Origin: Candidatus Latescibacterota bacterium
GTDB lineage: Bacteria > Latescibacterota > UBA2968 > UBA8231
NCBI GenBank assembly: GCA_965261395.1
Contig: OZ253462.1
Location: forward strand, 704,001 to 768,000
Reading direction: 5' to 3'
Length of the DNA stretch: 64,000 bases
Under the pieces are notes generated by a model. The model worked only from the letters and a program-made list of their open reading frames with translations, did not search any database and was not told the origin of the DNA. A program made the translations under genes and the position numbers. This document shows positions 5,747-26,216 of this stretch, piece after piece; within the stretch, counting starts at the first letter, position 1, and the number at the start of each line of letters is the position of its first letter.

Positions 5747-7141
5747 ATGTACGAATACCGTATACACCAAGACGCTATTTCCAACTTCGATAGTAAAGCT
5801 TTATCTATAGTTGAAAGGGTCTCTTTCACACCACATGGGGTTGATAGACAACCAATTCATGGAACTGTAATAGAAAATTCAGGTACTGAACGACCTCAAC
5901 CATCTGGACCTGATTTCCATGTGTCTGGTGTGATTACGGAATCAGACATCGTAGGTGAGGTGGACATAGGGCAGGTGGATGGAGATGGAAATAGAATTTC
6001 GTACCAGTGGTACGATGAGCCCGGCCAGTTCAGTATATCAGAGCATAACTACTCAGATGTCCGAGGCCTCGCCGCTCAACTCTTGAAAAACCAAGATATA
6101 GATTCTGCTATCTCACGCGAGACGGTAGAAGGACTTATCTGTAGGTGGGTACGCCAATTTTATACGAAAATCACCAAACAGAGTTTTATTGAATTTTTTC
6201 GTGCGGAAGCAGAAAAATGTGTTTGCAAGCTTCAAGTTTGGGCACCGATTCGTAGTTTGTGCATACAAAAGGCATTCAAACTCGGCGTGGTAACTTTCGT
6301 GCCCATAGGCCGAACTCGGATTGATGAATGGGAAAGACAATCGCTCGTAAAAGCGAAAGAACACAAAGAGTCGATCAAACAATATTTCGAGAATGAAGTG
6401 CGGCCAGTTCAAGGGTACACCGCAGCAGTAATGGAAGTTACTGCTGAGCAAAAAAAGGCACATGGCCTTCTACTTGATGAGGCCAATAAGGCACTAGGCT
6501 TGGTTAGGGTATTCACACCCTCATCCTTGCTTCCGAGTGAGACTTCTTCCTGTGTTCTATGGGGTACTGGACATATCGACCAATCGTTTATCTTCACAGT
6601 CTCTGACGGAAAGTTTGAAGGCTCTCAAAAAGGGTTTCTTGGCCCTAGTAATCAACCTGTAATACTGAGTTCTGAGATCATCGATAACAGCTTTCATCTC
6701 GGTTTGCATCGCCTACATGAAATGTTAGTTTCAAACAGTAGATCTGATTTAGAAGAAGCGGTACTCGAAGCCGTTCTACTATACTCAAGATGCACCATAG
6801 CAAAAGAGCCTACTGATAAACTCGTCTACATCCTCGTAGGCCTAGAAAGCATACTTCTTAAAGATTCGAATGAGCCAATTACGCAGAATTTGTCTGATAG
6901 AATAGCATTCCTCGTAGGTCGCAATTTGCAACAAAGAAAAGATATAGTGCAGTCTACTAAAAAGGCCTACAAATTGCGTTCCGATTTCGTTCATCATGGT
7001 GCTTCGATTGAATCCCTAGAGATTCTTCGAAAATTTATGGAGATCGCATGGCGTGTGATACTAGCACTGATTGGCTCTACTAGTCAACTGAGAACACGCC
7101 AGGAGCTTCTAGATCATCTGGATGACAAACGGCTTTCGTGA
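5747..7141 (+). CDS. ApeA-like HEPN-domain protein (putative defence RNase)
   Basis: Low-GC ORF. The C-terminal HEPN signature is LVYILVGLESILL...LSDRIAFL...AYKLRSDFVHHG (RxxxxH). The ATG at 5747 has a GGGAGA RBS. Confidence 0.7.
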   Translation: MYEYRIHQDAISNFDSKALSIVERVSFTPHGVDRQPIHGTVIENSGTERPQPSGPDFHVSGVITESDIVGEVDIGQVDGDGNRISYQWYDEPGQFSISEHNYSDVRGLAAQLLKNQDIDSAISRETVEGLICRWVRQFYTKITKQSFIEFFRAEAEKCVCKLQVWAPIRSLCIQKAFKLGVVTFVPIGRTRIDEWERQSLVKAKEHKESIKQYFENEVRPVQGYTAAVMEVTAEQKKAHGLLLDEANKALGLVRVFTPSSLLPSETSSCVLWGTGHIDQSFIFTVSDGKFEGSQKGFLGPSNQPVILSSEIIDNSFHLGLHRLHEMLVSNSRSDLEEAVLEAVLLYSRCTIAKEPTDKLVYILVGLESILLKDSNEPITQNLSDRIAFLVGRNLQQRKDIVQSTKKAYKLRSDFVHHGASIESLEILRKFMEIAWRVILALIGSTSQLRTRQELLDHLDDKRLS

Positions 7142-7292
7142 ATTAAGAATACAAACTTCGGCCAATACTATACTTCTGAGTAATACCAGCTCAACACAGC
7201 TTCGGGAGCAAACCACACGGTCAGGAGACCTCACTGTTTAAGCTTGGTCTGACTAGCTCCGAACCGGATACACGAAGTTTGAACAGCGGGGC

Positions 7293-7321
7293 TTGACGGT
7301 GTACTGAGGGTACGATATTGT
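7293..7321 (+). promoter_or_regulatory. Possible sigma70-type promoter for 7402-8301
   Basis: TTGACG, a 17-nt spacer, then TATTGT. Confidence 0.3.
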
Positions 7322-7401
7322 TGCACACGACAGGCTTCTTGGATGAATCTGAGCTGAACACAAAAAGCGAGATATTTTCTTTTAGAACGGATTAGAACAA
7401 T

Positions 7402-8301
7402 ATGATAACTGACCTTTTCTCGAAACGGCAGAAACGGAATCGAGGCGAAGTTCCTGACGTGTACCAGTACGAGACCATTCCTCCTGAATTACGGATTCAG
7501 ATTTTCCAAATCTGGACAGATGCCTTTGGGGATACTAGCACGAGAGGTGCCGTCAGTGCATACGGGTATATCAACAAAGTGCTGTGTCGTGAGTATGGCA
7601 TGCTTACACTTACTGAATATAGTGATTCCTATTTTGAGTCAGTCTCCAAATTCTTCCTCCAGACAGAGGATACAGAAAAGATAGTTGATATCATTGAGCT
7701 TTTATTCCAGTATATAGATAAATATCTCCGTGGCTACACTCCTGAATTCAGTAATCAGGAAGTATCACCCGATGAGGCGATTGATGAATTAAATTATCGG
7801 TTCCGCGAACACGGCGTGGGGTATCAATACGAATCCGGTCAAATAATCCGAGTTGATTCTCAGTTCATCCACTCTGAAGTGGTGCGACCTGCGCTGAATA
7901 TGCTTTCTGCTCCAATGTACGAAGGAGCGAATGCGGAATTTTTGAGTGCGCACGAGCATTATCGATCAAAGAGGTACAAAGAATGCCTGAACGACTGTCT
8001 CAAAGCATTCGAGAGTTGCATTAAAGCGATTTGCAAAAAGAGGAAGTGGGGCTATAATGAAAAAGATACTGCTAGTCGTCTAATTGAGATCGTGTTCTCT
8101 AACGATCTAATTCCACCTTTCATGCAATCACACTTTTCGGCACTAAGGAACACGTTGACGGATGGAATTCCTACTGTTCGCAATCGCCTGTCGGGACATG
8201 GACAGGGGTCAGAAGAAGTCGCTGTTCCAGAATACATAGCCGCATACGCACTTCACTTGACTGCATCAAATATTCTCTTGTTGGCGAGAGCTGACGAGTA
8301 A
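7402..8301 (+). CDS. STM4504/CBY_0614-family protein (AbiJ-type N-terminal domain plus HEPN/Abi-C-like domain)
   Basis: N-terminus FSKRQKRNRGEVPDVYQYETIP..LRIQI, then AIDELNYRFREHGVGYQYE, CLKAFES and C-terminal RNRLSGHGQG. Low GC. Confidence 0.75.
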   Translation: MITDLFSKRQKRNRGEVPDVYQYETIPPELRIQIFQIWTDAFGDTSTRGAVSAYGYINKVLCREYGMLTLTEYSDSYFESVSKFFLQTEDTEKIVDIIELLFQYIDKYLRGYTPEFSNQEVSPDEAIDELNYRFREHGVGYQYESGQIIRVDSQFIHSEVVRPALNMLSAPMYEGANAEFLSAHEHYRSKRYKECLNDCLKAFESCIKAICKKRKWGYNEKDTASRLIEIVFSNDLIPPFMQSHFSALRNTLTDGIPTVRNRLSGHGQGSEEVAVPEYIAAYALHLTASNILLLARADE

Positions 8302-8426
8302 ATAAAATAGGAGTCAACATGCTGAAAAGTTTTGATAAAAAAAACTGATCGAACTGCTTATAACCGCCCCTTGTTTCGTCGATGGTGATGTGGATATAAC
8401 GGCGAAATGGATCGAGGAGCTAAACA

Positions 8427-9503
8427 ATGAGCAAGTGGAAAATCGCCGGAATCAACTTCGACCATCTGCACATGGGCGACAATTTGCGCATGGCCTTTGA
8501 GCACGCAGACGTCGAAATCGTCGGCATCTGCGACGAGCAGCCCGAACGCATGAAACAGGCGTGCGAAGATTTCGCCATTCCAGCCGATAGAGTTTTCAGC
8601 GACTACCGAGCGTGTCTAGAAAAGACCCAGCCGGACATCGTCCTTTTGTGCCCAGCTACCGCCGAACACGGGGAGTGGACCGAAAAGGTCGCGCCTTTCG
8701 GGGTGCACATTATCATGGAAAAACCCTTCGCCGCCACCCTCGCCGAGGCAGACCAGATGCAGCGGGCCATGGAGGGGACGGGCAAGCTGTTGGCGATCAA
8801 CTGGCCGCTGGCTTGGTATCCACCGCACCGCACCGCGCAACGGCTCATCGCCGCTGGCGAGATCGGCGAGGTGATCGAAGTCCACTACTACGACGGCAAC
8901 CGAGGGCCGCTGTGGCATCTCGCCGACAAAGTGGAGCGCACCGCCGACGTCGTCGAGCGGGAAAAGCCCACGAGTTGGTTTTACAAAAAGGCGGCGGGCG
9001 GCGGCTCCCTGCTGGACTACCTAGGCTACGGCACCACATTGGGTACTTGGTACATGGACGGCCGGGCACCGATTGAGGTGACGGCCACCGTAGATCAGCC
9101 CCAAGGACTCGAAGTGGATGAGCACTGCATTGCAGTGGCGCGCTACGAGCGGGGTCTGTCGAAATTCGAGACGCGCTGGGGCACCTTTACCGACCCCTGG
9201 ACCCTGCAACCCCAACCCAAGTGCGGCTTCGCGATCGTCGGCAGCGAGGGCACGATCAGTTCCTACGACTACGAGGAGGTAATCCGCGTGCAGACGCGGG
9301 CGCAGCCAGCAACCGAAGAACGGCCGGTGGACGTGCTCGAACCGCCGTTCCAGAATCCCGTTCAGTACGTGATCCACTGCATTGAAGAGGACCAACCCAT
9401 CGAGGGGCCGCTCTCGCCGGTGCTGTGTCGCATCGGACAACAAATCGTCGATACCGCTTATCAAAGCGCTGCGCAGAAGCGCACCTTACCTCTGATTCAA
9501 TAG
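8427..9503 (+). CDS. Gfo/Idh/MocA family oxidoreductase
   Basis: HIIMEKPFA, GGGSLLDYLGY, IGEV and IVGSEGTI. GAGGAG RBS. Confidence 0.9.
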   Translation: MSKWKIAGINFDHLHMGDNLRMAFEHADVEIVGICDEQPERMKQACEDFAIPADRVFSDYRACLEKTQPDIVLLCPATAEHGEWTEKVAPFGVHIIMEKPFAATLAEADQMQRAMEGTGKLLAINWPLAWYPPHRTAQRLIAAGEIGEVIEVHYYDGNRGPLWHLADKVERTADVVEREKPTSWFYKKAAGGGSLLDYLGYGTTLGTWYMDGRAPIEVTATVDQPQGLEVDEHCIAVARYERGLSKFETRWGTFTDPWTLQPQPKCGFAIVGSEGTISSYDYEEVIRVQTRAQPATEERPVDVLEPPFQNPVQYVIHCIEEDQPIEGPLSPVLCRIGQQIVDTAYQSAAQKRTLPLIQ

Positions 9504-9506
9504 CGT

Positions 9507-10625
9507 ATGGCAGAAAGCCAAGACAGCGGCTATGGCCGTGGCAAGACCGGATCAGGAGTCGAAGTAGCAGCCCCAGACTTACCCTACCAGCCGCGCGACC
9601 CGGCGACTTATCGTCCGCAGATCGGCCTAATCGGCTGCGGTGGCATTTCCGAGATGCACTTGCGGGCCTATAAAAACGCCGGCTATGAGGTCGCGGCCCT
9701 GTGCAGCCGTGATCAGGGGCGCGTCGAGCAGCGGCAGCGGGAATTCTACCCCGCGGCCGACACCTATCTCGACTATCGGGACCTGCTCGCCCGCGATGAC
9801 ATCGAAGTAGTGGACCTTACACCCCATCCGCAGGAGCGGCTGCCGATTCTCGAAGCGGCCATTGATGCTGGTAAACACGTCCTCAGCCAGAAGCCTTTTG
9901 TGCTCGACTTGGATGTGGGCGAGGCGCTCATTGCACGGGCCGAGCGGCGCGGCGTGCAACTGGCCGTCAATCAGAATGGCCGCTGGGCACCGCATTTTAG
10001 CTACATGCGCCACGCGGTGGCCGCTGGATTGGTCGGCCAAGTGCAGAGCGTCGAGTTCGCCGTGCATTGGGACCACAACTGGATCGCCAGCTCCGCCTTT
10101 GACTCGGTAGAGGATCTAGTGCTCTACGACTTCGGGATGCACTGGTTCGATATGGCAGTGGTGCTCTTAGGCAGCGAGATGCCGCAAAGGGTCCACGCCT
10201 CAGCCCGGCACGCAGCCGGCCAGGAAGCTAAACCGCCGCTTTTGGCCCAGGCGGCGATTGAGTGCGCGGGCGCGCAGGCGACAATCTTTCTCAACGGCAA
10301 CACTCGCCAAGGTCAACAGGACCGCACTTATTTGGTCGGCACAGAGGGCACCATAGACGCCAGCGGCATAGATCTGACCGCGCAGGAAGTCGCGCTATAT
10401 ACCGCTGCGGGCGTGGCCCGACCGCAGCTTGTGGGGACGTGGTTTGAGCAGGGGTTTCACGGGACCATGGGCGAACTGCTCTGCGCCGTCGAAGAGGGCC
10501 GCGAACCCAACAACAGCGCCCGCGAAAATCTCGCAAGCTTGGCGCTGTGCTTTGCAGCCGTAGCCAGCGCCCACCGTGGTGAACCCGTGGTGCCGGGAGC
10601 GGTGCGGCGATTGCCCGGCCATTAA
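9507..10625 (+). CDS. Gfo/Idh/MocA family oxidoreductase
   Basis: IGLIGCGGI Rossmann motif, AGKHVLSQKP, VNQNGRWAP and LYDFGMHWFD. It starts 3 nt after the upstream paralog, suggesting an operon. Confidence 0.9.
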   Translation: MAESQDSGYGRGKTGSGVEVAAPDLPYQPRDPATYRPQIGLIGCGGISEMHLRAYKNAGYEVAALCSRDQGRVEQRQREFYPAADTYLDYRDLLARDDIEVVDLTPHPQERLPILEAAIDAGKHVLSQKPFVLDLDVGEALIARAERRGVQLAVNQNGRWAPHFSYMRHAVAAGLVGQVQSVEFAVHWDHNWIASSAFDSVEDLVLYDFGMHWFDMAVVLLGSEMPQRVHASARHAAGQEAKPPLLAQAAIECAGAQATIFLNGNTRQGQQDRTYLVGTEGTIDASGIDLTAQEVALYTAAGVARPQLVGTWFEQGFHGTMGELLCAVEEGREPNNSARENLASLALCFAAVASAHRGEPVVPGAVRRLPGH

Positions 10626-10704
10626 GCCGCCTACAATGGGCTGGATCTTCGGTCCGCCACTTCGTTTTCCTGCCGCCAGACGGCAGTCTCCAAAGGAGTT
10701 TTCT

Positions 10705-11553
10705 ATGGATTCGACCTGCCTGCAACACACCTTGACCGAGGAGGAGCGTCGCCAATTTGCGGAGGACGGCTTCTTCATCGTCCGCGATGTGCTGCCTCGG
10801 GATTTGGTAGCACAGCTCATCCCCATCGTCGATCGACTCGCTGCCGAGTACCGGCCGAAAAAGGGGCTGGAAAAACACCAGATGCACAACTTGTTCGACT
10901 TTATCGGCAAAGATGAACTTTTTCTGGAGTTGCTCGACTGGCCAAAGACGTTTGCCAAGGTCTTCGGGATTTTGGGCTGGCACATTCAGCTTTACCACTC
11001 GCACTTGATCGTTACCCCGCCTTTAGACGGCGTCGTGCCCAAACGCAAGCGGCTGGGCTGGCATCAAGACAGCGGGCGGCTCAACATCGACTTGGAGACT
11101 CATCCCCGGCCGAGGGTCTCGCTCAAGGTGGCGTATTTTCTCACGGACTGCACCGAGACCAATCGCGGCAACTTCCACGCCGTGCCCGGCTCTCACCTAA
11201 GAAACAAGCTGGAAATGCCCGAGGACGAAGACTTAGACCCACCGGGCGCGGTGCCGATTCAAGTGGCGGCGGGAGACGCGGTCTTTTTCGACCGGCGGAT
11301 TTGGCACTCGGCCGGCCACAACTTTTCGCCCGACGCGCGCAGGGCGCTGTTTTACGGCTATAGCTACCGCTGGTTGCGGCCACGCGATGACATGACCGTG
11401 GAGCACCTGATGGACCGCTGCGATCCGATCCGGCAGCAGCTACTCGGTGCTGGCCCGAGCGGCGGGCACGGTTACACTTCGCCGAAAGAGGAAGACGTGC
11501 CGCTGAGAGAGTGGATCCGCGAGCATCTGGGTGCCGAAGCGGTGGTGCAATAA
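10705..11553 (+). CDS. Phytanoyl-CoA dioxygenase (PhyH)-family Fe(II)/2OG dioxygenase, EctD-like
   Basis: ATG after AAAGGAG. FAEDGFFIV, WHQD, VPGSH, GDAVFFDRRIWHSAGHN and a distal R. Confidence 0.9.
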   Translation: MDSTCLQHTLTEEERRQFAEDGFFIVRDVLPRDLVAQLIPIVDRLAAEYRPKKGLEKHQMHNLFDFIGKDELFLELLDWPKTFAKVFGILGWHIQLYHSHLIVTPPLDGVVPKRKRLGWHQDSGRLNIDLETHPRPRVSLKVAYFLTDCTETNRGNFHAVPGSHLRNKLEMPEDEDLDPPGAVPIQVAAGDAVFFDRRIWHSAGHNFSPDARRALFYGYSYRWLRPRDDMTVEHLMDRCDPIRQQLLGAGPSGGHGYTSPKEEDVPLREWIREHLGAEAVVQ

Positions 11554-11572: not shown

Positions 11573-13930
11573 TCAGTAGACTATTGAGACCAACTCGACA
11601 GCCAACTCGGTGCTCCCATCCCCTTTGACCTTCAACCGCGCTATATAATTGCCCGGCGGCACTTGCCCTCTCGTCCCGGTGCGCCCGTCCCACGCCAACC
11701 GCAGCGGTCCGGCCATGCCCATCGACTCTACCCCGGCCACGCGTCGTCCCGCCAAATCGAAAATCTCCAGCTGCACGGGCCGCGCTGTCAAAACATCGAC
11801 CAGATCCAGTGCGACGACCAACTCGTCATTGACCCCGTCGCCGTTGGGCGTCAACACGCTGGGGGCAATGGACATATTGGCCCACAAGGATCGACCCAGC
11901 GGCAAGCGCACCACATTGGTGCTGCTTTCCACCAACTCCGCAGCATCCCCTGGTTCGACCCGCTGGCGCACGGGCTCGGCCAGACGACTGTCCTCCAAAA
12001 ACAGCTCAAAGCGAGTGGCGTCGAGGAATATGGCCGCGGCAAAATCCACTTCCACCAACTGCCCCGAGCGCACTGGCTGCGGCAATTGCACGGCAAAACC
12101 ATCCTCCACCGCGGCCACTGCCACTTCCCGCACCACCCCATCCACCCGCATCTGGTCGAACTGCAAATCCGTCGAGGCCCGCACCAATAGTCGGTCAAAG
12201 CCGTTGCGCGTGCGCACGGGCCGCACATAGTACGTAAAAATTTCCTGCCGACCCGGTTGCACCAGCACGGGTGCCAGTTCCGCGACTACCTGCTGGGCCA
12301 GGGGCTCGGAAAAATCCAGCACCACCCAATCCAGCCACGCCCCCATCGCCGGATCGCCGGATACCAGCCGCCCTTCCAACTGCACATAGCGCCGCATGGA
12401 GGGCGACTGGAAGGGCTGGTCCGGCTCCAAGTACACCGGACTCCACGGACTCCAATCCACCCCTGGCACAAAGACCGTGTCAATGGGCCCGCGAAAAGAG
12501 GGGATGCGCCGCTCCCACTGCCGCTGAGTGATTTCCTTGCCCTCTGGACTGCGGTATATCACCTCAGTATCGAGCGTATTGCCCGAGCGGCTGCGCAGCT
12601 CCAGACGCGTGCCCCCCGGGGCCTGACCGCCCCAGCGCAAGGCATTGATATTCTTCTGTCCCTGCAAATCCAAAATGGGCGAGCGCAGATCTACCTGGAC
12701 CGGCGCGCCGCGGCCAAAGACCTGGAGTTCGGAGATAGTACCAGAAGCTCCGCAGCCGCGCGCATCCTCGCCGCCGAACTCGTCGCCGCAGTTGGCGTCC
12801 CACGTCTTCCATCTGATGCGCACAAAGCGGACCGGTAGACTGGTAAAACGGTGATCGGCTAAGCCCTGTACCCGGTTGAGCCAGCTACCCCAACCGGAAA
12901 AGTGCTTGGTCCAGCGCAGCGAGCCGTCCGGAGCCCGTGAACCGTCCGAGGTCAATACCTCGTAGAAATTGAACGAGAACCCGCGGTACTGGCCGGAAAA
13001 GGTGAGCAGCCGCACCTGGTCAACCCAGTAAACAGCCCCCAGATCTAGGGTGATCTGGGCAATCACATCGACATCGGCCCGGGTCGCCCGGATATTGGAC
13101 CAGACTGTGCTGATGCGGCCGTCCATCAACTGCAGGGCATTGGCCAGATTCGGGGTATCGGGATTCTTGGTATCGACCCCCACGACAATGTCCACGCTGC
13201 CGCCTCGCTCGATGGCCCCCTGTACCAGATTGTCGCCAAAGGCCTCCACCTCGATCTCGACCAGTCGCGCCTCGGGCGCCGCTTTCAGGGCCTCTACCCG
13301 CACGAAGTGCACTGGGAAGGGCTCGTCCGGGTTCAATTCATAGGTGATCCGGCGGCGGCGGTCCTCGGTAAAGCGCTCTTTAATCCGGTACGCCAAGGTG
13401 CCTTCTATCTGCGTGCGGGTCTCGTCGCGGAACTGTTCGCCAGTGGACAGCAGCAGATCGAAAATCTCAAAGGGAGGGCCTCGCTCGGAAAAAATCAGAT
13501 GCACCCGGTGGGCCGAAACCACCCGGCCCAGATCCACTTCGACAAACCAGTCCTCGACCCTCTCGTCCAAATCCGGCCCCCAGCCCGTGTCCCCGTCCCC
13601 GTCCAGCACCCCCGGCGCCTCCAGGGCATTGGAACCCACCCGGCTGATCCCCCCGCCAAAGGCCACCGCGTCCAGGACCGCATTGTTGTTCCGGCGCACC
13701 GCCACCGGCCGAATGATCCCCTCCCGCGTCAGTTCCACCGCCCCCAGGGGCAACTCCCACTGGTGCCACTGAGCCGCTGTTGCAAAGCGCAACTCGTCGC
13801 CGGCGCCCTTTTGCCAAGGGGCCAACAGAATGCCGATGGCGAGCAAAAACGCCCGGCCTGAATCCATTGCCGCACGACGGAAAATGCCCCCACTCGCCGC
13901 ATCCCGGCGGATTTCTACTCCCTGCTCCAT
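11573..13930 (-). CDS. Secreted discoidin/F5-8-like repeat protein with a C-terminal FlgD Ig-like domain
   Basis: Signal-peptide-like RAFLLAIGILLAPW. VDLGR and LDLGAVYWVDQVRL discoidin-type motifs. C-terminal PSVLTPNGDGVND..IFDLAGRRV..WDGR...VPPGNYI (FlgD_ig). The start is uncertain (13930 or 13867); the longer ORF extension overlaps the upstream gene. Confidence 0.7.
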   Translation of the reverse strand: MEQGVEIRRDAASGGIFRRAAMDSGRAFLLAIGILLAPWQKGAGDELRFATAAQWHQWELPLGAVELTREGIIRPVAVRRNNNAVLDAVAFGGGISRVGSNALEAPGVLDGDGDTGWGPDLDERVEDWFVEVDLGRVVSAHRVHLIFSERGPPFEIFDLLLSTGEQFRDETRTQIEGTLAYRIKERFTEDRRRRITYELNPDEPFPVHFVRVEALKAAPEARLVEIEVEAFGDNLVQGAIERGGSVDIVVGVDTKNPDTPNLANALQLMDGRISTVWSNIRATRADVDVIAQITLDLGAVYWVDQVRLLTFSGQYRGFSFNFYEVLTSDGSRAPDGSLRWTKHFSGWGSWLNRVQGLADHRFTSLPVRFVRIRWKTWDANCGDEFGGEDARGCGASGTISELQVFGRGAPVQVDLRSPILDLQGQKNINALRWGGQAPGGTRLELRSRSGNTLDTEVIYRSPEGKEITQRQWERRIPSFRGPIDTVFVPGVDWSPWSPVYLEPDQPFQSPSMRRYVQLEGRLVSGDPAMGAWLDWVVLDFSEPLAQQVVAELAPVLVQPGRQEIFTYYVRPVRTRNGFDRLLVRASTDLQFDQMRVDGVVREVAVAAVEDGFAVQLPQPVRSGQLVEVDFAAAIFLDATRFELFLEDSRLAEPVRQRVEPGDAAELVESSTNVVRLPLGRSLWANMSIAPSVLTPNGDGVNDELVVALDLVDVLTARPVQLEIFDLAGRRVAGVESMGMAGPLRLAWDGRTGTRGQVPPGNYIARLKVKGDGSTELAVELVSIVY

Positions 13931-14001
13931 CGACACCCACTTCCCCTTTGACAGAGTTTGTGGGTATCTATAGTAAACAAAAAGCGACGCATGCGTCGCC
14001 C

Positions 14002-16934
14002 CTAGGCCGGTAGCCCTGCAAAGAGCCGGCTGAACAGGCTGGTCAAGGGCTCGGTCTCGCCGCGCTGGGCCGCCCGGGCAAAGACTACGCCGGGCTGGGC
14101 CGCCCGCACTGCCCGGCCCAAAATGTGGTAATCGGCACGGCTGGGCCGTTGGGCCGCTTCCCGCGCCTCGCTCCAGCCCTGGTTGGTGGCGGCTAGACCC
14201 CATAGGGCACGCGGTGCCCGCACCTTGGTCTCCTCGACCGACAGGCCGTCGCGCCAACAACCACGCTGAGCGAATAGACTACCATCTTCCCGATAGATCA
14301 GCCCACCGCCCACGTATTGAATCAACTGCTGTTGGTTGCCCCGCGCGCCCGACAGGGCCAACAGAGCCAAGGGCCCCAAGTCGTTGTCGTCGAAATCGGC
14401 CTGCTGGTGGAAAGCCGCCACCAACTCGTCGCTGTACATTTGCCACTCGTCCCAATTGATCTCTGCGGGCTGCTCAGGCCACTCCTTGCCCGAACCCAAG
14501 AAGGGGTTGAAGGAAGCCCCCGACTGCTTGCAGACCTCAAAACCGCGCCGCGTCAGCCGGTCGAGTACCTCCAGTGATCGCTGCAAACCCTCACGCTGCA
14601 GCACCTGCGCTAGCAAGCGGTTGAGATCGTGCTTGGCGAACAGTCGGCTGCCATCCACAGCCACTCCAGTCAGTTCCTCCACTTCAGCGCGGCCTTCCTC
14701 CGTGCGGCACAGCCGCGCCAAGCCCCATATCATGCCGTGGTAGTTGTCGGCCACGTAGCGCCATACATCCGCATCGCGCTGTATGTGTCCGGCCACCGAC
14801 AGCGCGGTTCCGGCTTCGGCCTGGGCTTCCTCCGTGAGAGGCAAAAACACCTCGATATGGTCGCCGTCGAAATCTAGCTCCATCAGTCGGCAGACGCGCG
14901 GATGGACGCGCACTGCGGCCCCGGCCAAACGCTGCGGACGAAAGGCCACCATCGCGGTGGGCGGCACGTGGAACATCGGACCTTCTTCAACCAGCACCCG
15001 CTGGGCGCTGTACAGCAGCACCCACGAGCGCGCCATGATCGCGTCCAAAACCTCAGCCGCATGGGCCGAACGCCGCGCCACTTCCTCAGCGCGACCTATT
15101 TCCCGCTCCACCTGAGGCCCGAACAAAGCCCAGGCCATTTCCTCGGGCAGGCCCACTTGGTCAAGATTCAACTCAAACCCCGAAACAAGCGCGGCCCGGC
15201 CGCTAAACAGCGGTCTGGCCCGGAAGTGAAGGTGCTCTGGGCGCAACAACGCGGTAAAAAAATCCTCCACCCGTTGGGCCACCTGCGCCACTGCCGGTCC
15301 GACTAGGACCTCGGGGGCCTCGCTATCGACGACGCGCTGCAAGCGCGCATTGGCTTCGACCAAATCCTCGTAGCAGCCCCGGACCGGGTCGAACTCGGTC
15401 CCCACTGGCAAAGCGACGGGGGCTCCCACCGTCCCGACCTGGCGTCCCGGGGCCCACGGGTGCGGCACTGGCCGGGCTAGGGTCAGTCCCTCGGGCTCGG
15501 CAAAGGAGAAGCGCAACTCCCCACTCGCTAACTCGGCCCGTATCCCGGCCATACCCAACAACTGCTGCAACAAAGCAAAGCGCGGGGACGGTGGTGGGGA
15601 CAGGGATATCGGGCCGGTGGTTAGGCGCTGGCCCAGCGCATTGGCATCGGGTCGCTCGGCCGCGGCCGTGTTGAACAAAGCGTGGATATTGGCTACGGCC
15701 CCGGCCTCGCACAAAGCTCCGTAGGCTATCATATCCAGTTCTGGTCCGCCGACTCCTGTCACCGCAGTTTCCAAGCGCTCGGCCGCGGTGTGGGCCGCCA
15801 GAAGGCCCCAGTACACCCAACCCACAGTACTGCGATAGGGTAGCTTTGCGCCTTTGAGGGTCAGTTGCTCCATGCCATCTTCGGACAGTCCCGCCTCGAA
15901 TAGACGCGCTTTCAACATCTCTTCGCTGGGTGCCTGAAAAGGTGGTACCACCGACGGGTGCCCGGCGACTTGGGCGAGGCGACCCATGACCGCCTCGCGC
16001 TGCTGGCCGAAATTGAGCCGCGAGACCATACTGGTGGGGCTGAAGATGAGTTCTATCGGCGCACCATCGGGCAACTGCGGCATGTCGGCGTCGGGCAGGA
16101 TGCGCGTCACCACCGCTTTGGCACCGTGGCGGTTGCTCATGCGGTCGCCCACCCCCACTGCGGCGGGAAAATCCATCCGCGCCGCGGCCGATTCGCTAAT
16201 GACCAAGCCATCCTCAAACGTGTCTCCATCCCACATGATGAAGGCGGTCAACAGATTGTAGCCACCCCAAAAATCGACGGCCCCGGACTCGTATCCCGTC
16301 TGCACTAGGGCCGGTTCGGGCTTGTGGCCCTTGGAGGCCAAGCGCTGGTCGTACTGTTGGCGGAACCAACCCGTGGAGTGGATCGGTGCCGCTGTATCGG
16401 CTGCGCTCGTCCACTGGCGCATCATATTGATGCCCATTAGGGCGCGATTGGTATCGTCGTGTTCGAGAAAGGGCACCATAGAGGCCGAAAAACCCAAGAT
16501 GCTGTCGGGCGCTTTGTCGGTTCGTTCGAGCTTGCCGTCGCGGATGCGGGCACCGCGGGCCACTTCCAGCATTCGACCGATATTGGGGCCTTCGGGGATG
16601 CAGTAGGGGCACACTAGGCCGTATTGGCTGTAGGGGAAAACGTCTTGGTCGTCAAAGGGCTCGACGACGATGGGGATCAGCGTCAGCCGCCGCAAATGGG
16701 TATAGCGGTCGAGCCAATTGGTCGCCTGTAGATACTGCGAAGTTTCCTCCAAGTGGAAGTCGCGCATCCAGGCGTCCAGCGGCAGCCAGTTGCGCACCAA
16801 GTCGCCATCCCAAGCCAACTGCTCGGGGGCCGCCTCCAACCTTTGGTCAATAAAGTCGTATAGCTGTTCGCCCACACACAGAATTCGCGCTTGAAAGACT
16901 CCCTATGCCAGGGTACGTCGAGATTCAATGTCAT
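14002..16934 (-). CDS. Miniaturised single-chain RNA polymerase beta/beta-prime (RpoB-RpoC) fusion-like protein; 5' end frameshifted near 16895
   Basis: The 957-aa frame (14002-16875) has RpoB blocks SQYLQATNWLDRYTHLRR, VCPYCIPEGPNIG, PFLEHDDTNRALMGINMMRQ, FEDGLVISE and VGDRMSNRHGAKAVV..LPDADMP. RpoC blocks follow: FSGRAALV, VRVHPRVCRLMELDFDGD and SGARG. The strong GGAGG RBS precedes the ATG at 16934, in a different frame. Confidence 0.85.
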
Positions 16935-16975
16935 TAATGTTCCTCCGGGTTATTATTCGCGCTATGAGTTGTGGG

Positions 16976-17022
16976 TCCGGTATCTGCATCGAGGCCCTCC
17001 GCAGATAAAGACGCCGCCCGGA
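16976..17022 (-). promoter_or_regulatory. Stem-loop in the 5' leader of the mini-RNAP gene
   Basis: TATCTGC (16981-87) pairs with GCAGATA (17001-07). Flanking TCCGG/CCGGA could extend the stem across a bulge. Confidence 0.35.
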
Positions 17023-17169
17023 AAGTACAGGTTCAAGGTCGAAGGTAAAAAAGTCCCGAAACCTCATTGGAGGCTGGCTTCTTTTACGAGTTGACTCACT
17101 AGTCGAGCAGGGTATCTTACCACCCACCGTCCGAATACCAACCTTAACCCTTACAGGTGCTCTTGCCTT

Positions 17170-18123
17170 ATGAGACTAACACCAGCCCAACTCGACCAGT
17201 TTTACCGCGACGGCTACATCATCGTCCCCGACCTGTTCACTGCCGACGAGATGGACGCCGCCCTAGCGGCGATGGAACAGACTTTCTACGGCCAATTCTT
17301 CCAGCAGTGGCTGACCGATTGCGACCAAGGCGATGCCTCCGGGGTCTCGGACGGCTTCACCACCACGCACGACCACTCCGAGGGCCGCTCGCAATTTCCC
17401 GTGGGTGCGCCAGCCTTGGATCGGCTAATAGAAAACGAGACCTACCTCGACATTTTCGAGCAATGTCTGGGCGCAAAAGCCAGCTACTGCAACGCCCACC
17501 TCTTCATGCGCTCGGGGCCTACCGACAAGCGCCATCCCGACAACCCTTGGGAGGGCTACCACATTGACCACTACACCAATTGCCTGCTGCCGCCCTACGA
17601 CCAAACAGGCCGTTTCGACTACGTCAATTCGGGGGTGTATCTGCACGATGTCGAAGACGACGGTGCCCCCATGCAGATCATCCCCGGCTCGCACAAAGTA
17701 GCTGGCCCCGCTTTTGTGCGGGCGCTTGCCCAAGGCAACGCCACGGGTGGGTCCTTCAAGGACCTGCGCCAAGCCACCGAACTAGCCGCTCCGGTCCCCG
17801 CTACCGGTCGGCGCGGGGCGGCTGCCTTCTACTCGTCGTATCTGGTACACGCGGCGCAACCCTTTGCCAATAAGCGCAAGCAGCGCGCCTTTTGGACTTT
17901 GTCCATGTGCCGCCGCGACAACGATCGCTGGACCCGGTTCGCCAATCCCTTCATCTACGGCGAACGCGAGCACATGTTGCCCTTTTTCACGGCCACCACG
18001 CCCCGGGTGCGCGGCCTGTTCGGCTGGCCCGAACCCGGCCACCCGTACTTCACCAGCCAAACCCTGGAACTTTTGCAGCATACCCTACCTGGCATTGATA
18101 CAGGTCCCTATCGCGAAAGTTGA
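17170..18123 (+). CDS. PhyH-family Fe(II)/2OG dioxygenase
   Basis: FYRDGYIIV, YHID, IIPGSH and YLVHAAQP. Confidence 0.85.
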   Translation: MRLTPAQLDQFYRDGYIIVPDLFTADEMDAALAAMEQTFYGQFFQQWLTDCDQGDASGVSDGFTTTHDHSEGRSQFPVGAPALDRLIENETYLDIFEQCLGAKASYCNAHLFMRSGPTDKRHPDNPWEGYHIDHYTNCLLPPYDQTGRFDYVNSGVYLHDVEDDGAPMQIIPGSHKVAGPAFVRALAQGNATGGSFKDLRQATELAAPVPATGRRGAAAFYSSYLVHAAQPFANKRKQRAFWTLSMCRRDNDRWTRFANPFIYGEREHMLPFFTATTPRVRGLFGWPEPGHPYFTSQTLELLQHTLPGIDTGPYRES

Positions 18124-21502: not shown

Positions 21503-22039
21503 ATGTTGCTGATTAGACATTGTCAGTCCTCAGGGCAAGACCCGGATGCGACGCTGACAGAGACTGGGCGAAAACAGGCAGAAGCACTCGCTGGGTTCTT
21601 GTCCGACTACCCGATCGACATGATCGTCTCCAGCTCCTACAAGCGGGCACAGCAAAGCATTGAACCATTTGCTGCCAAAGTGGGATTGCCTGTTCACTTG
21701 GATCACCGCCTAATTGAACGGACGCTTTCGGGGAGTCCAATTGACAACTGGCGCGAGGTGGTCCGCGATTCATTTGGAGACTTGGAATTGCGAGTACCGG
21801 GCGGCGAATCGGCACGCGAAGTGTTAGACCGAGGCTGGGCCGCCATCACCGAGCTGCTCGACGGTAATCACCGGTTCCCAATTGCGGTAACCCATGGCAA
21901 TCTCTTGAGTCTGATCCTGAACTCACTGGACCCTACTTTCGGCTACGATGGATGGGAATCTCTATCGAATCCAGACGTATTTGCACTCAAAGAAGCCGAC
22001 GATGGGCGATTGGTATTCGAGAGGCTCTGGTCTGAATAG
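21503..22039 (+). CDS. Histidine phosphatase (phosphoglycerate mutase) family protein
   Basis: LLIRHCQS (RHG variant), LTETGRKQA, SSSYKRAQQS, PGGES and VTHG. Confidence 0.9.
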   Translation: MLLIRHCQSSGQDPDATLTETGRKQAEALAGFLSDYPIDMIVSSSYKRAQQSIEPFAAKVGLPVHLDHRLIERTLSGSPIDNWREVVRDSFGDLELRVPGGESAREVLDRGWAAITELLDGNHRFPIAVTHGNLLSLILNSLDPTFGYDGWESLSNPDVFALKEADDGRLVFERLWSE

Positions 22040-22234
22040 GCACTGAGCCGCTTAACAACGCGGTTCGGGCACAGTGGGAAAAGAAGTAGCGGGAAGGAGA
22101 TTGACCTGCGTCACCAGCAGTATTACTGTACAAATATCATCTATCATCACAGTCTGCGTCGTCCCACCGGATACGGCTCTAGGTGGTCGTGAGTTAGAAG
22201 CGGATTTCAGGAATTACCGCGAATAAGGATTGAA

Positions 22235-22504
22235 ATGCCTGAAATTTCCCGATTTTTCGGCATCATAATACGAATGTATGCTGAGCCTCATGTACCTCAT
22301 CACCGACCTCACCTTCACGCTTATTACCAAGAGGACGTTGGCGTATATGCCATTGATACTATTGAACTGATCGCGGGACAACTTCCCCGGCGACAGCAGC
22401 GTCTAATTGAGGCTTGGATGGAGTTACACCATGAAGAATTACTGGCAGATTGGGAGCGATTACAATCAGGTCAAGCACCTTTCAAAATCGACCCTCTTCA
22501 ATAA
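22235..22504 (+). CDS. DUF4160 protein (DhiT-like toxin)
   Basis: MPEISRFFGIIIRMY..HHRPHLHAYY..G.LPRRQQRLIEAW.ELHHEELLADWE..PFKIDPL. Confidence 0.9.
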   Translation: MPEISRFFGIIIRMYAEPHVPHHRPHLHAYYQEDVGVYAIDTIELIAGQLPRRQQRLIEAWMELHHEELLADWERLQSGQAPFKIDPLQ

Positions 22505-22515
22505 AGGAGATCGAC

Positions 22516-22818
22516 ATGCGTCATCCTATATACCGCGTAATCTTTTTTGAAATACAAGCACCCTATACACTCCGAGTTTGTTTTGACGATGATACGGAAC
22601 AGATTATCGATTTCCAGGCCATATTGGAAGGTGAACTATTCGGTCCACTTCGCGATGTATTCCTATTCAATCAAGTTCGGATTGATCCTGAGGTCCATAC
22701 TCTGGTATGGCCGAATGGGGCTGATTTTGATCCAGCCACTTTACATGATTGGCCCGAGCATCTTCCTGAACTTAAGCGCATGAGCAAGCGTTGGTCTCTC
22801 GTTGAGATGGAGGACTAA
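22516..22818 (+). CDS. DUF2442 protein (DhiA-like antitoxin)
   Basis: YTLRVCFDD..FGPLRD..FNQVRID..TLVWPNGADFDPATL. AAGGAG RBS. This is the usual partner of DUF4160. Confidence 0.9.
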   Translation: MRHPIYRVIFFEIQAPYTLRVCFDDDTEQIIDFQAILEGELFGPLRDVFLFNQVRIDPEVHTLVWPNGADFDPATLHDWPEHLPELKRMSKRWSLVEMED

Positions 22819-22878
22819 CGCGGTTTGGCCGATACAGATAATGATTTTTGATGTCGGAATACGAGGAGTAATCAGGTA

Positions 22879-22980
22879 ATGATAAGGGCCATCACGTCAG
22901 AAGACTTGAGAGATTGCGCACGTCTATTCGTGAAGGTTTTCTCCGAATGGGCGTACGAGATGTTGGTACGCCCTGAGTAA
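22879..22980 (+). pseudogene. N-terminal remnant of a GNAT acetyltransferase
   Basis: A GAGGAG RBS precedes MIRAITSEDLRDCARLFVKVFSE, a typical GNAT beta1-alpha1 start. It stops after 33 aa. Confidence 0.5.
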
Positions 22981-22993
22981 AGAAAGATGGTCC

Positions 22994-23963
22994 ATGCCCA
23001 CGTTCCCTCTCGAATCAATCGGGGTTGGTTCCCAGCTATACCTTACAGCGGCACCCGGTATCGAGCTTGGAACTCGCCTAAATGGCGGCCACTTCAGAGA
23101 CACTGTCGAGCAAGGTGTTGTGACTGATCATGGTTCTATTCTGGAAATTATGTGGGAATTGGTTCGCATGCGCGAATTTCCGTCGCGACCATGCCGATTC
23201 GACGCGCTCTTTCTTTGGCCAGATGAAGTTATCGCACGAGGATGGCATTACCGCCAAGGCTTTTTCGATTCCGAAACAGGCTCACAGCGCGGGCTGTACC
23301 AAGTTGAGGTGGAACGGATTTGTCAAATCTGGGCCGCCGACATGCACTTGATCAGTTACATCCGCGATGGCGAAACAGTTGAGGCGCTGATGCAGCGCGC
23401 GTCAATACTGGAAATCTGTTCCTAGCAAAAATCATCCAGAGATTCTTCTACACGGTCAGGTGATCGTTCGCCAGAATCTGCGTGATTTGGGAATAGAGCG
23501 AATTGTTCCCATACAAGATGCAAGTGTTGATGGGCTGATACGCGAACGCCTTTGGTCCGATTTGTCTGGTCATTCATGCCTGCTGTCGCAGAGCGGTGAC
23601 TCTCGTTACCTATTGAGTCTGCAAATGACCGTGGCAACTGATCTGCCAACGCCGCTGGCCGGCTGGATCGGTCTGGAAATCGAAGGGCTGAATGAGGTAT
23701 TGAAACCGAGACGAGGAAGGGAACCGATTCTTGTGACCGGACATGCACCACTTAGTTACAGACTAGATGATGAGAGTGGTGTTTGCGAAACTCCATATGA
23801 GTTTAAGGATCCAGTAGTAGCTGATGCGGCGAGGGAGTGCGTGCTAGGGAAAAGGCGCTTTCGACCTGTATTGATCTGTAATCGGGAAGCGGCTCACTAC
23901 TGGCAGTTGCCTTCCTATTGGGATGGCCAAATTCCCGGAAATTGGACTACAGGTAAAACATGA
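22994..23963 (+). pseudogene. Frameshifted DUF2441-like (ART-fold) protein with a C-terminal extension
   Basis: ORF 22994-23425 has ELVRMREFPSRPCRFDALF..LYQVEV. The expected YW....PEILLHGQV motif lies in the +1 frame from about 23400 and runs without a stop into ORF 23460-23963. The break is in a CGCGCG run. Confidence 0.65.
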
Positions 23964-24037
23964 GCAAGTTCGCGTACTTTCTCAATTCTTAGTTTAATCT
24001 TTGGCATGGCGTTTTCAGTGAAGCTATTTAGGTCCAC

Positions 24038-24790
24038 TTAGGTGATTTCTATTCTAAATTCACGGTCAGACTTTTTCGCCTGGACATACTGAATATTGCG
24101 CTCCTTGCAGAGAGTCTCTATACAGGACTTGAACCATTTTTCTATTCTTACCCCAAGAATAACACGTGAAATTGGCCACGATAGAGGATATTCTTTATCA
24201 CCACAATCCGTTATTAAGCGCCATTCTTTCTCGTACGCCCATTCCCATGACTTGGTTTTCATCATGAGCCTTATCGTCTCGCCATCTTGGTTAATCAACA
24301 TCTACCCAAGATCGATTGGTGGATAATGCCTTTCATATCTTACCGGCGAACACCTTTCTTCATCGCCAAGATAGTTATTTTCGGCACGGGTAAACTCAAA
24401 GCAAACACCTTTGTGATTTTGTGCATAATGGGACCACATAAGTATTGAATCGCAGACTTCTGACAGGCATACGACTCCTGAGTTCTTGTTTTCTTTTTCG
24501 AAATTTCTAACTATTTCGTTCAATCGTTTCCGTTCTTCTATGGTAAATTTCCCATTGGCATCAAGCTTCGATGTCTTGTATTCGGCAACTTGACTTTCGT
24601 TCCGCCATCGGCGTGCTGCCTCTAAGACACTTTCTTCGGTTATGTCTTTTTCAATCTCCAAATCACAGTCAAATGGATCATTGAATCGCTCTGGTTTTGA
24701 TGCCCAAAGGCGACCGTTGATCAAGATGTCTAATGTATAGGCGTCTGGGGGTTTGTACATGTAAAGTTTCTTGATAAGAGGGTAGAGCAT
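24038..24790 (-). pseudogene. DUF2971 family protein interrupted by an in-frame TAG (24302-24304)
   Basis: LWASKPERFNDPFD, VVCLSEVCDSILMWSHYAQNHKGVCFEF and VRY come before the stop. TKSWEWAYEKEWRL..ISRVILG continues in the same frame after it. Confidence 0.8.
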
Positions 24791-24830
24791 CTATTATGTC
24801 TCCTAACGGTTTTTCACATATACTCAACTT

Positions 24831-26216
24831 CTACCCAAGCTTGCGCTGTTCCGCTTCAATAATTTCCAGTTGCGCCTCTATTGCGGCGTAGTACTCGGGT
24901 AGCGGATCTACCTCATACAGCATGTCAACACCTTGCTGCTGGCAGTTATCGAATAGGATCATGCCCCCCTCACTCGGTTCCTCCATATCCTGTACAGCCT
25001 CTCGAAGGTCGACATAGAAGCTACGCGAGGCTGCATGTTCGGTCTTCAGTTCCTTGGACGCCATTCTATAAAATGTGGTCTTTGCACTTGGAAACATCAT
25101 TCGCTTGAAGAAGCCTTCCTCGGCGACCCCCTCTGTCGCAACTTCTAGGTGCTTCTCAAAAAACAAGTCCATTGCACCTACGACATTATGATACAACTCC
25201 ATAAATGCATCCCGAAACTCGGCAGCGAGATACCGGAGATCCTCAAGAGCTCTGCGAAGATGTCGCTCCTTGACCCATCCGCTGATTCCCTTGCCGGTAA
25301 AGATGCCGGCCAAGCTGCCTAATACTGGTAGAACAACGGCCGATAGGCCCCCTGTCACGGGTGCTAACGCCAGCCCCCAACCAAGCCCAGCCGTGCCTCC
25401 GAGCCAACCGCCAACACCGCTAGCAGTCGCGTCGAGCGCGGTGTGTTCTGCCGCGATCTTCCAGTTTATATCGCCTTTGCGCAATTTATGGATATTCTTA
25501 CATGCGTTGATGGCCAACGAAATGAAGGGAACGCTGTCGATCCCATCTCCGAGGTCGGCAATCCCCTCAAACGTGTCGGCCGTGCTGTGAAATGCTTCTT
25601 GAGAAGAGAGTTCAGAATTGATTACAACTCGGGGGTTGTCGCGGAAGGCGTCGGCCATCTCCCGGTTTGCGATTACGTCGATATCTGGATGCTTGTCGAG
25701 GTGGTCTTGGATATACCGTCGTTCATCTGTGACCTTAACGTTGTACGGCTTCCCATCTATTATATGGTCCCATCCCTCGTTAGTACCTGAACCTGGAGTC
25801 TCGACGTCATGCCCTCTATCTCGGTAATAGTCTGCTACAGCATCCTCGGCGGTGTAGCCCTTATATTTGTCGATCATCCGGTCCCAAGCTTCCGATCCAG
25901 GCTCGGACTTGATGATCTTGCTTTTCATAAAGTCCATGAGGTCACCAAGATTATCGAAGCCTTGTGCGTGGTGCAGATGCTTCATCCCCTCCAGAGCGTT
26001 GGGGTCTAGTTTCATCGTGTTGTATAGCACATCAAACGTGCTTACACCTGTCACGACAGCTCCGTCCACTCCTAACTCTCGCGCTACACTCTTCCGTAGC
26101 GGTTCGTCAACCTTGAGCGTCTTTGTGAGGAAGGCCCGCTGGCGCGACCGATGGAAGTATGAGGCTGTGCTGAGTACGACAGTCGCAACAGCTATACATA
26201 TAAGGATGACTTCCAT
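24831..26216 (-). CDS. Hypothetical membrane-anchored protein with a PD-(D/E)XK-like central motif and a glycine-zipper hairpin
   Basis: N-terminal TM helix, then KGYTAE...NEGWDHIIDGKPYNVK, then Gly-rich hydrophobic GVGGWLGGTAGLGWG..PVTGG..GSLAGIFTG, and a helical C-terminus. Confidence 0.6.
   Translation of the reverse strand: MEVILICIAVATVVLSTASYFHRSRQRAFLTKTLKVDEPLRKSVARELGVDGAVVTGVSTFDVLYNTMKLDPNALEGMKHLHHAQGFDNLGDLMDFMKSKIIKSEPGSEAWDRMIDKYKGYTAEDAVADYYRDRGHDVETPGSGTNEGWDHIIDGKPYNVKVTDERRYIQDHLDKHPDIDVIANREMADAFRDNPRVVINSELSSQEAFHSTADTFEGIADLGDGIDSVPFISLAINACKNIHKLRKGDINWKIAAEHTALDATASGVGGWLGGTAGLGWGLALAPVTGGLSAVVLPVLGSLAGIFTGKGISGWVKERHLRRALEDLRYLAAEFRDAFMELYHNVVGAMDLFFEKHLEVATEGVAEEGFFKRMMFPSAKTTFYRMASKELKTEHAASRSFYVDLREAVQDMEEPSEGGMILFDNCQQQGVDMLYEVDPLPEYYAAIEAQLEIIEAEQRKLG

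Follow-up and report, generated by a model that had tools for sequence, protein, structure and literature searches.

YonO, encoded by the SPbeta prophage of Bacillus subtilis, is described in the examined part of its report as synthesizing RNA efficiently without a recognisable trigger loop, and as having few catalytic residues in common with cellular RNA polymerases (RNAPs) (PMC5467207). Another compact enzyme is Orf6 of the yeast killer plasmid pGKl2, a 982-residue Rpb2::Rpb1 fusion presumed to be a minimal transcription enzyme, and the same source, in the part available, gives the Corynebacterium NCgl1702 protein as a further single-chain two-barrel RNAP (PMC2919709). Single-chain two-barrel RNAPs are known already; a family of small RNAPs coupled to a sigma factor is apparently undescribed. 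Here we analysed a 64,000-nucleotide (nt) stretch of a Candidatus Latescibacterota bacterium (contig OZ253462.1, positions 704,001 to 768,000), hereafter the window, in which an earlier note, made from the letters alone, had pointed out a gene for a pruned, fused RNAP, hereafter the mini-RNAP. Our reading, to which we give a probability of about 0.6, is that this copy belongs to a mini-polymerase system coupled to a sigma factor and was disabled recently. Neither the family nor a sigma gene coupled to a beta/beta-prime fusion was found described in the literature searched, a search that left subscription journals and supplements mostly outside, and a term look-up in the available text of a review of non-canonical ECF (extracytoplasmic function) sigma factors returned no mention of the family (PMC8999054).

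The gene is a single open reading frame (ORF) of 957 codons, 14002..16875 on the minus strand, which begins with GTG. Its Pfam domains follow one another in the order Rpb2_3 (residues 47-111), Rpb2_6 (241-357) and Rpb1_2 (627-690), and a phmmer search of PDB returned bacterial beta chains (E 1e-42) and beta-prime chains (8e-22). With the NCBIfam models TIGR02013 (rpoB) and TIGR02386 (rpoC) it scored 149.3 bits against a cut-off of 801 and 95.2 bits against a cut-off of 963.5, so that neither curated threshold was reached; the beta/beta-prime fusion models also matched (1.8e-45), well under their cut-offs. In the ORF the catalytic cores of bacterial beta and beta-prime, cut down to a minimum, are joined in a single chain. 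This chain retains two double-psi barrels, the fork region, the clamp helices, the F-loop and the bridge helix, and it is without the lobes, the flap, the beta-prime N-terminus, the rudder and the trigger loop. The genome of the window, a single 6.55-Mb contig from a metagenome-type assembly with an estimated contamination of 8%, also contains a canonical rpoB (1819 bits). Because this normal rpoB is present in the same genome, the mini-RNAP gene is an additional copy. A full-length relative of 1057 residues, P0003, is 97% identical to the window ORF.

Next, the neighbourhoods of related genes were compared. In a scan of one genome per species a relative was present in 176 species genomes, and the 80 places kept from that scan gave 79 distinct loci, from Latescibacterota, Poribacteria, Gemmatimonadota, Hydrogenedentota, Planctomycetota, Chloroflexota (Anaerolineae, Ktedonobacteraceae and Herpetosiphonaceae), Armatimonadota (Chthonomonadales) and a Moanabacter. 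We called ORFs in these loci, clustered the neighbours and found one cluster of proteins of about 200 residues encoded just upstream of the polymerase on the same strand, from which a sigma hidden Markov model (HMM) was built. Besides this gene, no neighbour was common to different clades in the 79 loci. Pfam Sigma70_r2 and Sigma70_r4 were present in all five upstream neighbours tested, and the proteins reached 99-112 bits with TIGR02937 (cut-off 42.9), which is a superfamily model only; none reached the cut-off of a named equivalog sigma model in NCBIfam. By these domain matches the upstream proteins are ECF-type sigma factors. The HMM detected them upstream in 69 of the 76 loci with a called polymerase ORF (75 related loci and the window). 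An adjacent sigma gene was also found, by reading against the coordinates of the scan match, in L025 and L075, where the called polymerase ORF had begun too far upstream, and in L022, L028, L052 and L053, where none had been called. In total, 75 of 77 assessable loci across phyla have a sigma gene directly upstream on the same strand, a count that includes L073 (sigma cut by the contig start) and L027 (split sigma); L061 and L063 are without upstream sequence and hence unassessable, and the two loci without the gene are L017 and L077. The sigma gene shares its last 4 nt with the beginning of the polymerase gene in 20 loci from the window's own clade. The sigma family is conserved, with a mean column identity of 62% in 37 sequences. 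Columns ~100-130 of its alignment, between regions 2 and 4, hold an acidic linker and, after it, a P-x-W...P...E stretch that is almost invariant, which could be a replacement for flap-dependent docking.

Upstream of the sigma gene, within 250 nt, the motif TGAAC-N16-G[CT]GTC was present in 65 of 74 related loci, compared with 0/74 in same-size stretches inside the gene, 0/74 in the reverse complement and 1/1480 in shuffled sequences. The motif looks like an ECF-type -35/-10 pair, hence autoregulation would be expected. A stricter form of it occurred at 0-2 sites per genome in five genomes (controls, 0-1); these sites were the operon's own promoter in four of the five, and two genomes had one further site each. 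One such second match lies at G000:C1:661974-661999 (minus strand), ~42 kb before the start of the window; about 0.2 are expected by chance in the window's genome, and the congener G018 has no second site. Furthermore, we predicted the complex of the sigma factor with polymerase residues 286-1057. The score was 0.45, whereas the best of three controls reached 0.01; the runs agreed in at least 31% of contacts and the partner pLDDT (predicted local distance difference test) was at least 66. The mark set for such predictions is reached by 58 of 80 solved complexes and by 2 of 110 mismatched pairs, and at scores of 0.60 or less by 7 of the 80 solved complexes and by both passing mismatches. The pass may also reflect likeness to solved sigma/beta-prime complexes.

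In the window this gene pair is damaged. Junctions were placed by long-gap pairwise alignment to L018, which is 94% identical and has an intact pair, with the sigma gene at 7405-8004 and the polymerase gene at 8001-11174. Between window positions 16954 and 16953, 541 nt (L018 7441-7981) are missing, leaving 36 nt and 23 nt of the sigma gene. Between 16894 and 16893, 238 nt (L018 8042-8279) are missing and the frame is shifted; this deletion removes polymerase codons 14-93 (in part), and the sequence jumps to the codons for QARILCVGEQ. Neither deletion length is a multiple of three. Close relatives have 1046-1070 residues and start MTLNLDVPWHRESFDLF. The deleted residues 14-93 are part of a conserved N-terminal domain (1-99 of P0003) with pLDDT of 82-97, in which W9, H10, G72, F74 and P85 are invariant or nearly so. 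No Shine-Dalgarno-like purine run was seen by eye before GTG 16875, and an orthologous sigma gene was not found elsewhere in the window's genome, where the best match is 33% identical. We read the copy as lost because a conserved folded domain is deleted, the sigma gene is gone and no purine run precedes the GTG; most likely it is a remnant that was disabled recently and no longer encodes a working enzyme. The earlier note had described the architecture correctly and had not noticed the 5' deletion and frameshift. The interval it gave, 14010-16220, covers only the part of the gene from FEDG to the stop, although the residues it reported there were right.

As the assembly is of the metagenome type with some estimated contamination, both deletions might be artefacts that hide an intact gene pair. 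Sequencing runs assembled independently make this hardly credible. A Logan contig of run X1 bridges both junctions (15503-17258, 0 differences), and so does a contig of run X2 from a different study (15448-16988, 1 difference); X1 is possibly the source sample, and X2 is an independent one. In favour of an artefact, full-length alleles do exist in other samples: contigs of X4 (DNA) and X15 leave the window sequence at 16894/16897 and 16953/16955 and run into undeleted sequence. Their continuations, translated by eye from the reverse complement (VPYPDQRELD, FDLFVHQRLP and QLSQAWQAI), are the undeleted forms, and QLSQAWQAI matches the sigma C-terminus. X15 is an RNA library that holds a 90-95% relative, and one of its contigs spans the sigma 3' end and the polymerase 5' end; its contigs are evidence for the existence of the undeleted form only, not for transcription.

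Could the truncated protein of 957 residues still be made, from GTG 16875 or a later start, and work without its N-terminal domain and sigma factor? The ratio of nonsynonymous to synonymous substitution rates (dN/dS) was 0.13-0.17 for the window ORF against 19 relatives and 0.11-0.14 on the window's own branch (three-taxon comparison), with a median of 0.16 for pairs of intact genes (171 pairs). The synonymous rate (dS) on the window's branch is ~0.12, so that a low dN/dS there cannot date a recent deletion. In addition, P0002, a second 957-residue form from another assembly, has 24 differences in 956 positions and stands closest among five proteins compared, and samples from two studies contain the deletion allele. 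Recent loss and a still-working truncated protein fit the dN/dS and P0002 data alike. The domain removed, with its conserved residues and confident fold, the lack of a purine run and an operon promoter that matches the conserved motif of the missing sigma factor speak against a working truncated protein. We consider it quite unlikely and favour loss.

Loss of this system is visible in other genomes of the same genus. Among 18 congeneric genomes, a full-length copy was found in 13 and only the canonical subunits in four (88-95% complete); in one further congener (58% complete) nothing was found with the same query. In L017 (7900-8010) an independent deletion has taken the promoter and almost the whole sigma gene and left a polymerase ORF of 1047 residues intact; no orthologous sigma gene was found in that genome, the best match scoring 85 bits against ~290 for orthologues. 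A split sigma gene is seen in L027. Piece by piece, the window's genus is visibly losing the system.

To judge what the intact relatives might do, we examined the family as a whole. A word-indexed protein search gave 4135 matches, with ~120 near-full-length proteins among those listed; these are mostly ~1000-1070 residues long and are unnamed or called 'hypothetical protein'. When 50%-identity representatives were searched exhaustively, the full-length members listed went down to 33-37% identity, and below E ~1e-58 proteins of ~2250-2500 residues, taken as full-length beta/beta-prime fusions, appear among fragments. The pruned layout is common to ~130 diverse full-length relatives, which can be aligned end to end to ~35% identity. 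One Latescibacterota chromosome carries two divergent sigma/mini-polymerase pairs (L030 and L074), 45% and 42% identical to the query. For P0003, an AlphaFold2 model built from an alignment of 134 relatives had a mean pLDDT of 93.8 and a predicted template modelling score of 0.91, and pLDDT fell below 50 only at residues 732-736, inside the insertion after LLYSAQ. A Foldseek search of PDB with this model returned bacterial and plastid beta/beta-prime chains first (E down to 5e-22), and in a viral fold library the best matches were giant-virus RNAP subunits. The suggestion in the earlier note that whole modules had been removed by selection and not by decay agrees with the shared layout, the confident fold and a dN/dS of ~0.16 among close relatives, and module-wise pruning is supported as a selected family architecture.

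Motifs and modules were mapped by aligning a profile of 25 family members to E. coli rpoB and rpoC, with the numbering checked (Table 1). Large gaps interrupt the alignment of family residues 87-551 to beta 443-1342; residues 586-977 align to beta-prime 263-787. The beta-prime alignment begins at 263, so that the N-terminal Zn-binding part is without a counterpart, and it stops at 787, within the bridge helix; the E. coli trigger-loop motif (beta-prime 924-936) has no counterpart either. The chain ends ~50 residues past the bridge helix, with only three short helices there in the model. A by-eye match of this C-terminal tail (PGVVFARAA...SRLFVGL) to the beta-prime C-terminus was not supported: the last 50 residues of P0003, compared with E. 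coli beta-prime by BLASTP, gave no match (best E 2.1). The motifs GDRMSNRHGAK and HDDTNRAL align with E. coli beta motifs, and in RHGAK the residues R1069, H1070 and K1073 are all kept. Each residue that the earlier note listed as retained (the Asp triad, D814, K1073, R1106 and H1237) was found again by the profile alignments, as were its substitutions at K1065 (Arg), N458 (Glu) and R425, the position of which holds Ser. The flap, the beta-prime Zn part and the trigger loop, which it had reported missing, were recovered by none of these alignments.

Table 1. Features of the mini-RNAP operon remnant in the window. Residue numbers are those of E. coli beta or beta-prime unless another protein is named.
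Feature	Position	Strand	Remarks
Promoter motif TGAACC-N16-GCGTC	17010..17035	-	Still present upstream of the damaged operon
5' sigma remnant, ATG + 11 codons, MQIPDPQLIARI	16954..16989	-	= L018 7405-7440
3' sigma remnant, last 23 nt	16931..16953	-	Out of frame; = L018 7982-8004
Original mini-RNAP start, ATG 16934; 41 nt encoding MTLNLDVPWHRES	16894..16934	-	= L018 8001-8041
Mini-RNAP body (fused beta/beta-prime)	14002..16893	-	Open from GTG 16875; ancestral frame begins QARILCVGEQ
Beta-type barrel motifs	16114..16218	-	FEDG, 19-residue linker replacing the flap, GDRMSNRHGAKA
FEDG = E813/D814, kept	16207-16218	-	Profile alignment to E. coli beta
19-residue linker ISESAAARMDFPAAVGVGD	16144-16200	-	In place of E. 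coli beta 815-1062 (~250 residues, flap included)
HGAK = K1073, kept; GDR = K1065->R	within 16114-16149	-	Beta profile alignment
SRLN = beta R1106, kept	16012..16023	-	Arg there in 173/174 family sequences
AAHT, His = H1237 (His of LNHLVDD)	15787-15798	-	PDB phmmer alignment and numbering check
Beta-prime clamp helices (coiled coil)	15244..15372	-	Aligned to beta-prime 263-309; model helices 592-616 and 621-642
LLYSAQ for LLNRAP (N424->Y, R425->S)	15001..15018	-	Beta-prime alignment; clade-specific insertion follows
ELDFDGD for NADFDGD (D460/D462/D464 kept, N458->E)	14860..14880	-	Beta-prime alignment
Bridge helix (979-1007 of P0003)	14152..14238	-	Model helix, coordinates by offset; alignment to beta-prime 787

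In canonical RNAP the clamp helices dock sigma region 2 and the flap docks sigma region 4. The earlier note had observed that the clamp helices are kept yet have lost basic residues, which a hand count bears out (3 Arg/Lys, where the aligned part of E. coli beta-prime has 9). From this loss and the missing flap it had proposed a sigma-independent enzyme acting alone, slow or non-canonical, such as one with altered sugar specificity, a nucleotidyltransferase or a nuclease. The changes R425->S and N458->E in the window protein would suit such an enzyme, and so would the polymerase that persists without an orthologous sigma gene in the L017 genome and the window ORF that stays open although its sigma gene is gone. 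The adjacent sigma gene in 75/77 loci, with the 4-nt overlap in 20 own-clade loci, runs counter to independence, as do the conservation of the sigma family and, weakly, the complex prediction with its distance from the controls. The sigma-less cases come, moreover, from a genus that is losing the system, in which 4/18 congeners have canonical subunits only. We therefore regard a sigma-independent enzyme as very unlikely.

We then asked how far the active site is maintained. Motif strings were collected from 174 sequences, and a tree and residue counts were made from 134, namely all full-length matches below 85% identity to P0003 and eight closer ones; the 40 sequences left out are near-identical to those eight. 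The Asp triad is intact in 123 of the 134. In the tree, 19 sequences around the window protein form a monophyletic clade marked by YS[AG]Q followed by an insertion and by E-x-DFDGD. Outside this clade (n=115), R425 is kept in 104 sequences, N458 in 76, K1065 in 110, K1073 in 112, R1106 in 114, D814 in 110 and the Asp triad in 110. The triad and the nucleoside triphosphate (NTP)-contact residues are strongly kept there, and catalysis is therefore the function that appears to be selected family-wide; taken together, its members resemble an active polymerase that contacts its substrates in the canonical way. The five sequences outside the clade with a broken triad are P0088 and P0100 (first Asp->Asn), P0074, P0125 and P0194. 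In P0125 and P0194, both full-length, the metal site is fully degenerate, with GFSAQ and GFGGL for DFDGD.

Within the clade the picture differs, above all at R425 and N458, which contact the NTP ribose. R425 is kept in none of the 19 sequences (Ser in 15, Gly in 3, Asn in 1) and N458 in none, K1065 is kept in 5, K1073 in 13, and R1106 and D814 in all 19. The triad is intact in 13 and broken in 6, which are P0058, P0065, P0067 and P0071 (third Asp->Asn), P0062 (first->Ser) and P0064 (first->Tyr). The four nearest outgroup sequences (P0101, P0125, P0129 and P0134) also have no Arg at the R425 position. Judged by these alignments, loss of R425 together with N458 is confined to one derived clade, whose active site looks remodelled and in part degenerate. 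The earlier note had expected the triad, K1073 and R1106 to be invariant while N458 and R425 varied, and had taken variable catalytic Asp residues as a sign against its reading. R1106 is indeed near-invariant; the variation at R425 and N458 belongs to this clade, K1073 and the triad are broken in some sequences, and variable catalytic Asp residues are in part what we see (6/19 in the clade, 5/115 elsewhere).

The pseudo-enzyme that the earlier note had offered as an option thus stays in view for the window's clade, whereas it does not suit the family elsewhere, where 110/115 keep the triad. Such a decoy would bind the sigma factor through its clamp helices and hold it or hand it over, and no RNA would be made. 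The substitutions in the clade speak for it; in addition, the triad-broken proteins are still full-length, and L025, the apparent locus of the triad-less P0064, still has an adjacent sigma gene. Anti-sigma genes typically follow an ECF sigma gene immediately, and in these operons the mini-polymerase occupies that place. Opposed to a decoy are the strongly kept triad and NTP-contact residues outside the clade, the fact that the window protein and its close relatives (at least 75% identity) retain DFDGD, D814, R1106, R678 and R731, and the cost of a sigma binder of ~1050 residues. On balance a decoy seems unlikely, even for the clade.

Together, these observations suggest the following model for the sigma-coupled system. 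The sigma factor would dock on the retained clamp helices of the mini-polymerase and direct it to TGAAC-N16-G[CT]GTC promoters, at least to its own. As a pair, the two proteins may make up a second, small transcription machine, which like YonO would need no trigger loop. In the window, the 541-nt deletion has destroyed the sigma gene and the 238-nt frameshifting deletion has taken the conserved N-terminal domain of the polymerase. More tentatively, and at somewhat less than even odds, at least six phylum-level groups would carry such a two-protein machine, made of an ECF-type sigma factor and a single-chain RNAP of 1050 residues without flap or trigger loop, which starts at TGAAC-N16-G[CT]GTC; the window's sub-lineage may be shifting to another substrate or to a role as non-catalytic sigma partner, and the window's genus would be losing the system piece by piece.

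Several points weigh against our main reading, that of a disabled copy of a sigma-coupled system. The remaining 957 codons are intact, with a dN/dS on the window's branch no higher than among intact relatives; given this and P0002, the truncated protein could still be made and be under selection. L017 keeps an intact polymerase without a sigma gene. The flap, where canonical RNAP holds sigma region 4, is absent. The broken triad in 11 of 134 sequences shows that the fold can persist without catalysis, and the activity of family members is a prediction. The predicted complex lends the pairing weak support, no regulon was seen in the strict-pattern search of the five genomes, and the sigma factor could equally serve the host core enzyme.

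The surroundings of the operon were also examined. The longest form of the ORF directly downstream of the polymerase (11573-14260, minus strand) extends into the 3' end of the polymerase gene. Its product carries an F5/8 type C domain together with a CHU_C type IX secretion sorting domain. A gene of comparable length (~785 residues) follows the polymerase only in L012, L018 and L021, the likeness being one of size and place, and the downstream ORF looks like a later insertion outside the mini-polymerase system. In seven Latescibacterota loci (L050, L055, L058, L067, L069, L070 and L071) an extra gene of ~380-600 residues lies between the sigma and polymerase genes (~6100-7990; cluster c26 in five), and downstream of the polymerase on the same strand these loci have a 128-residue gene (c24) and a 580-920-residue gene (c9). 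Guanine plus cytosine content is low at 6001-8000 (0.44) and 22001-26000 (0.48), with ~0.60 in the rest of the window. In PHROGs only RNAP-beta-like phage families matched the polymerase and no prophage context was seen, and in PADLOC the polymerase matched no defence-system family. A single weak PADLOC match of the sigma factor to a CARF-type family (E 2.7e-4) was taken as likeness in a helix-turn-helix.

Should the pair prove active, it would be the smallest relative of cellular RNAP that depends on a sigma factor, would show which parts of an enzyme of ~400 kDa are needed for promoter-directed RNA synthesis, and could be used as a compact, orthogonal module for transcription. For work on a minimal active site, the derived clade provides naturally occurring changes at R425, at N458 and in the Asp triad. 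For annotation, the family genes are all 'hypothetical protein' where named (among the matches listed), and the window copy should be recorded as a damaged gene next to a sigma gene that has been deleted.

Compared with known systems, the mini-RNAP is clearly homologous to canonical rpoB/rpoC, including the natural full-length fusions (NF007172 and NF011417), with which it has the beta-then-beta-prime order in common. Catalytic motifs, fork, clamp helices, F-loop and bridge helix are shared with canonical RNAP, which also gives the best structural matches. However, it has ~1050 residues against ~2750 for canonical beta plus beta-prime, scores far under the family cut-offs, and, as a dispensable second copy, accompanies a normal rpoB; its gene follows an ECF sigma gene of its own. 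YonO, as far as the examined text describes it, is likewise one polypeptide of ~100 kDa related to multisubunit RNAPs and without a recognisable trigger loop. The mini-RNAP differs in aligning with bacterial beta/beta-prime over hundreds of residues, which sets it apart from YonO as described there; YonO is prophage-encoded, and that text of PMC5467207 mentions no sigma partner for it. Orf6, compared by its description in the part of the source available, resembles the mini-RNAP in fusion order, in the deletion of about half of each subunit and in size, and differs in its eukaryotic Rpb2/Rpb1 descent, its location on a cytoplasmic linear plasmid and having no sigma factor. Finally, the operon resembles ECF sigma/anti-sigma operons in its putative autoregulated ECF-type promoter, with the sigma gene first and the second gene often translationally coupled. 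Its sigma factor passes the superfamily model TIGR02937 only, and its second gene encodes a polymerase homologue in the place of an anti-sigma factor.

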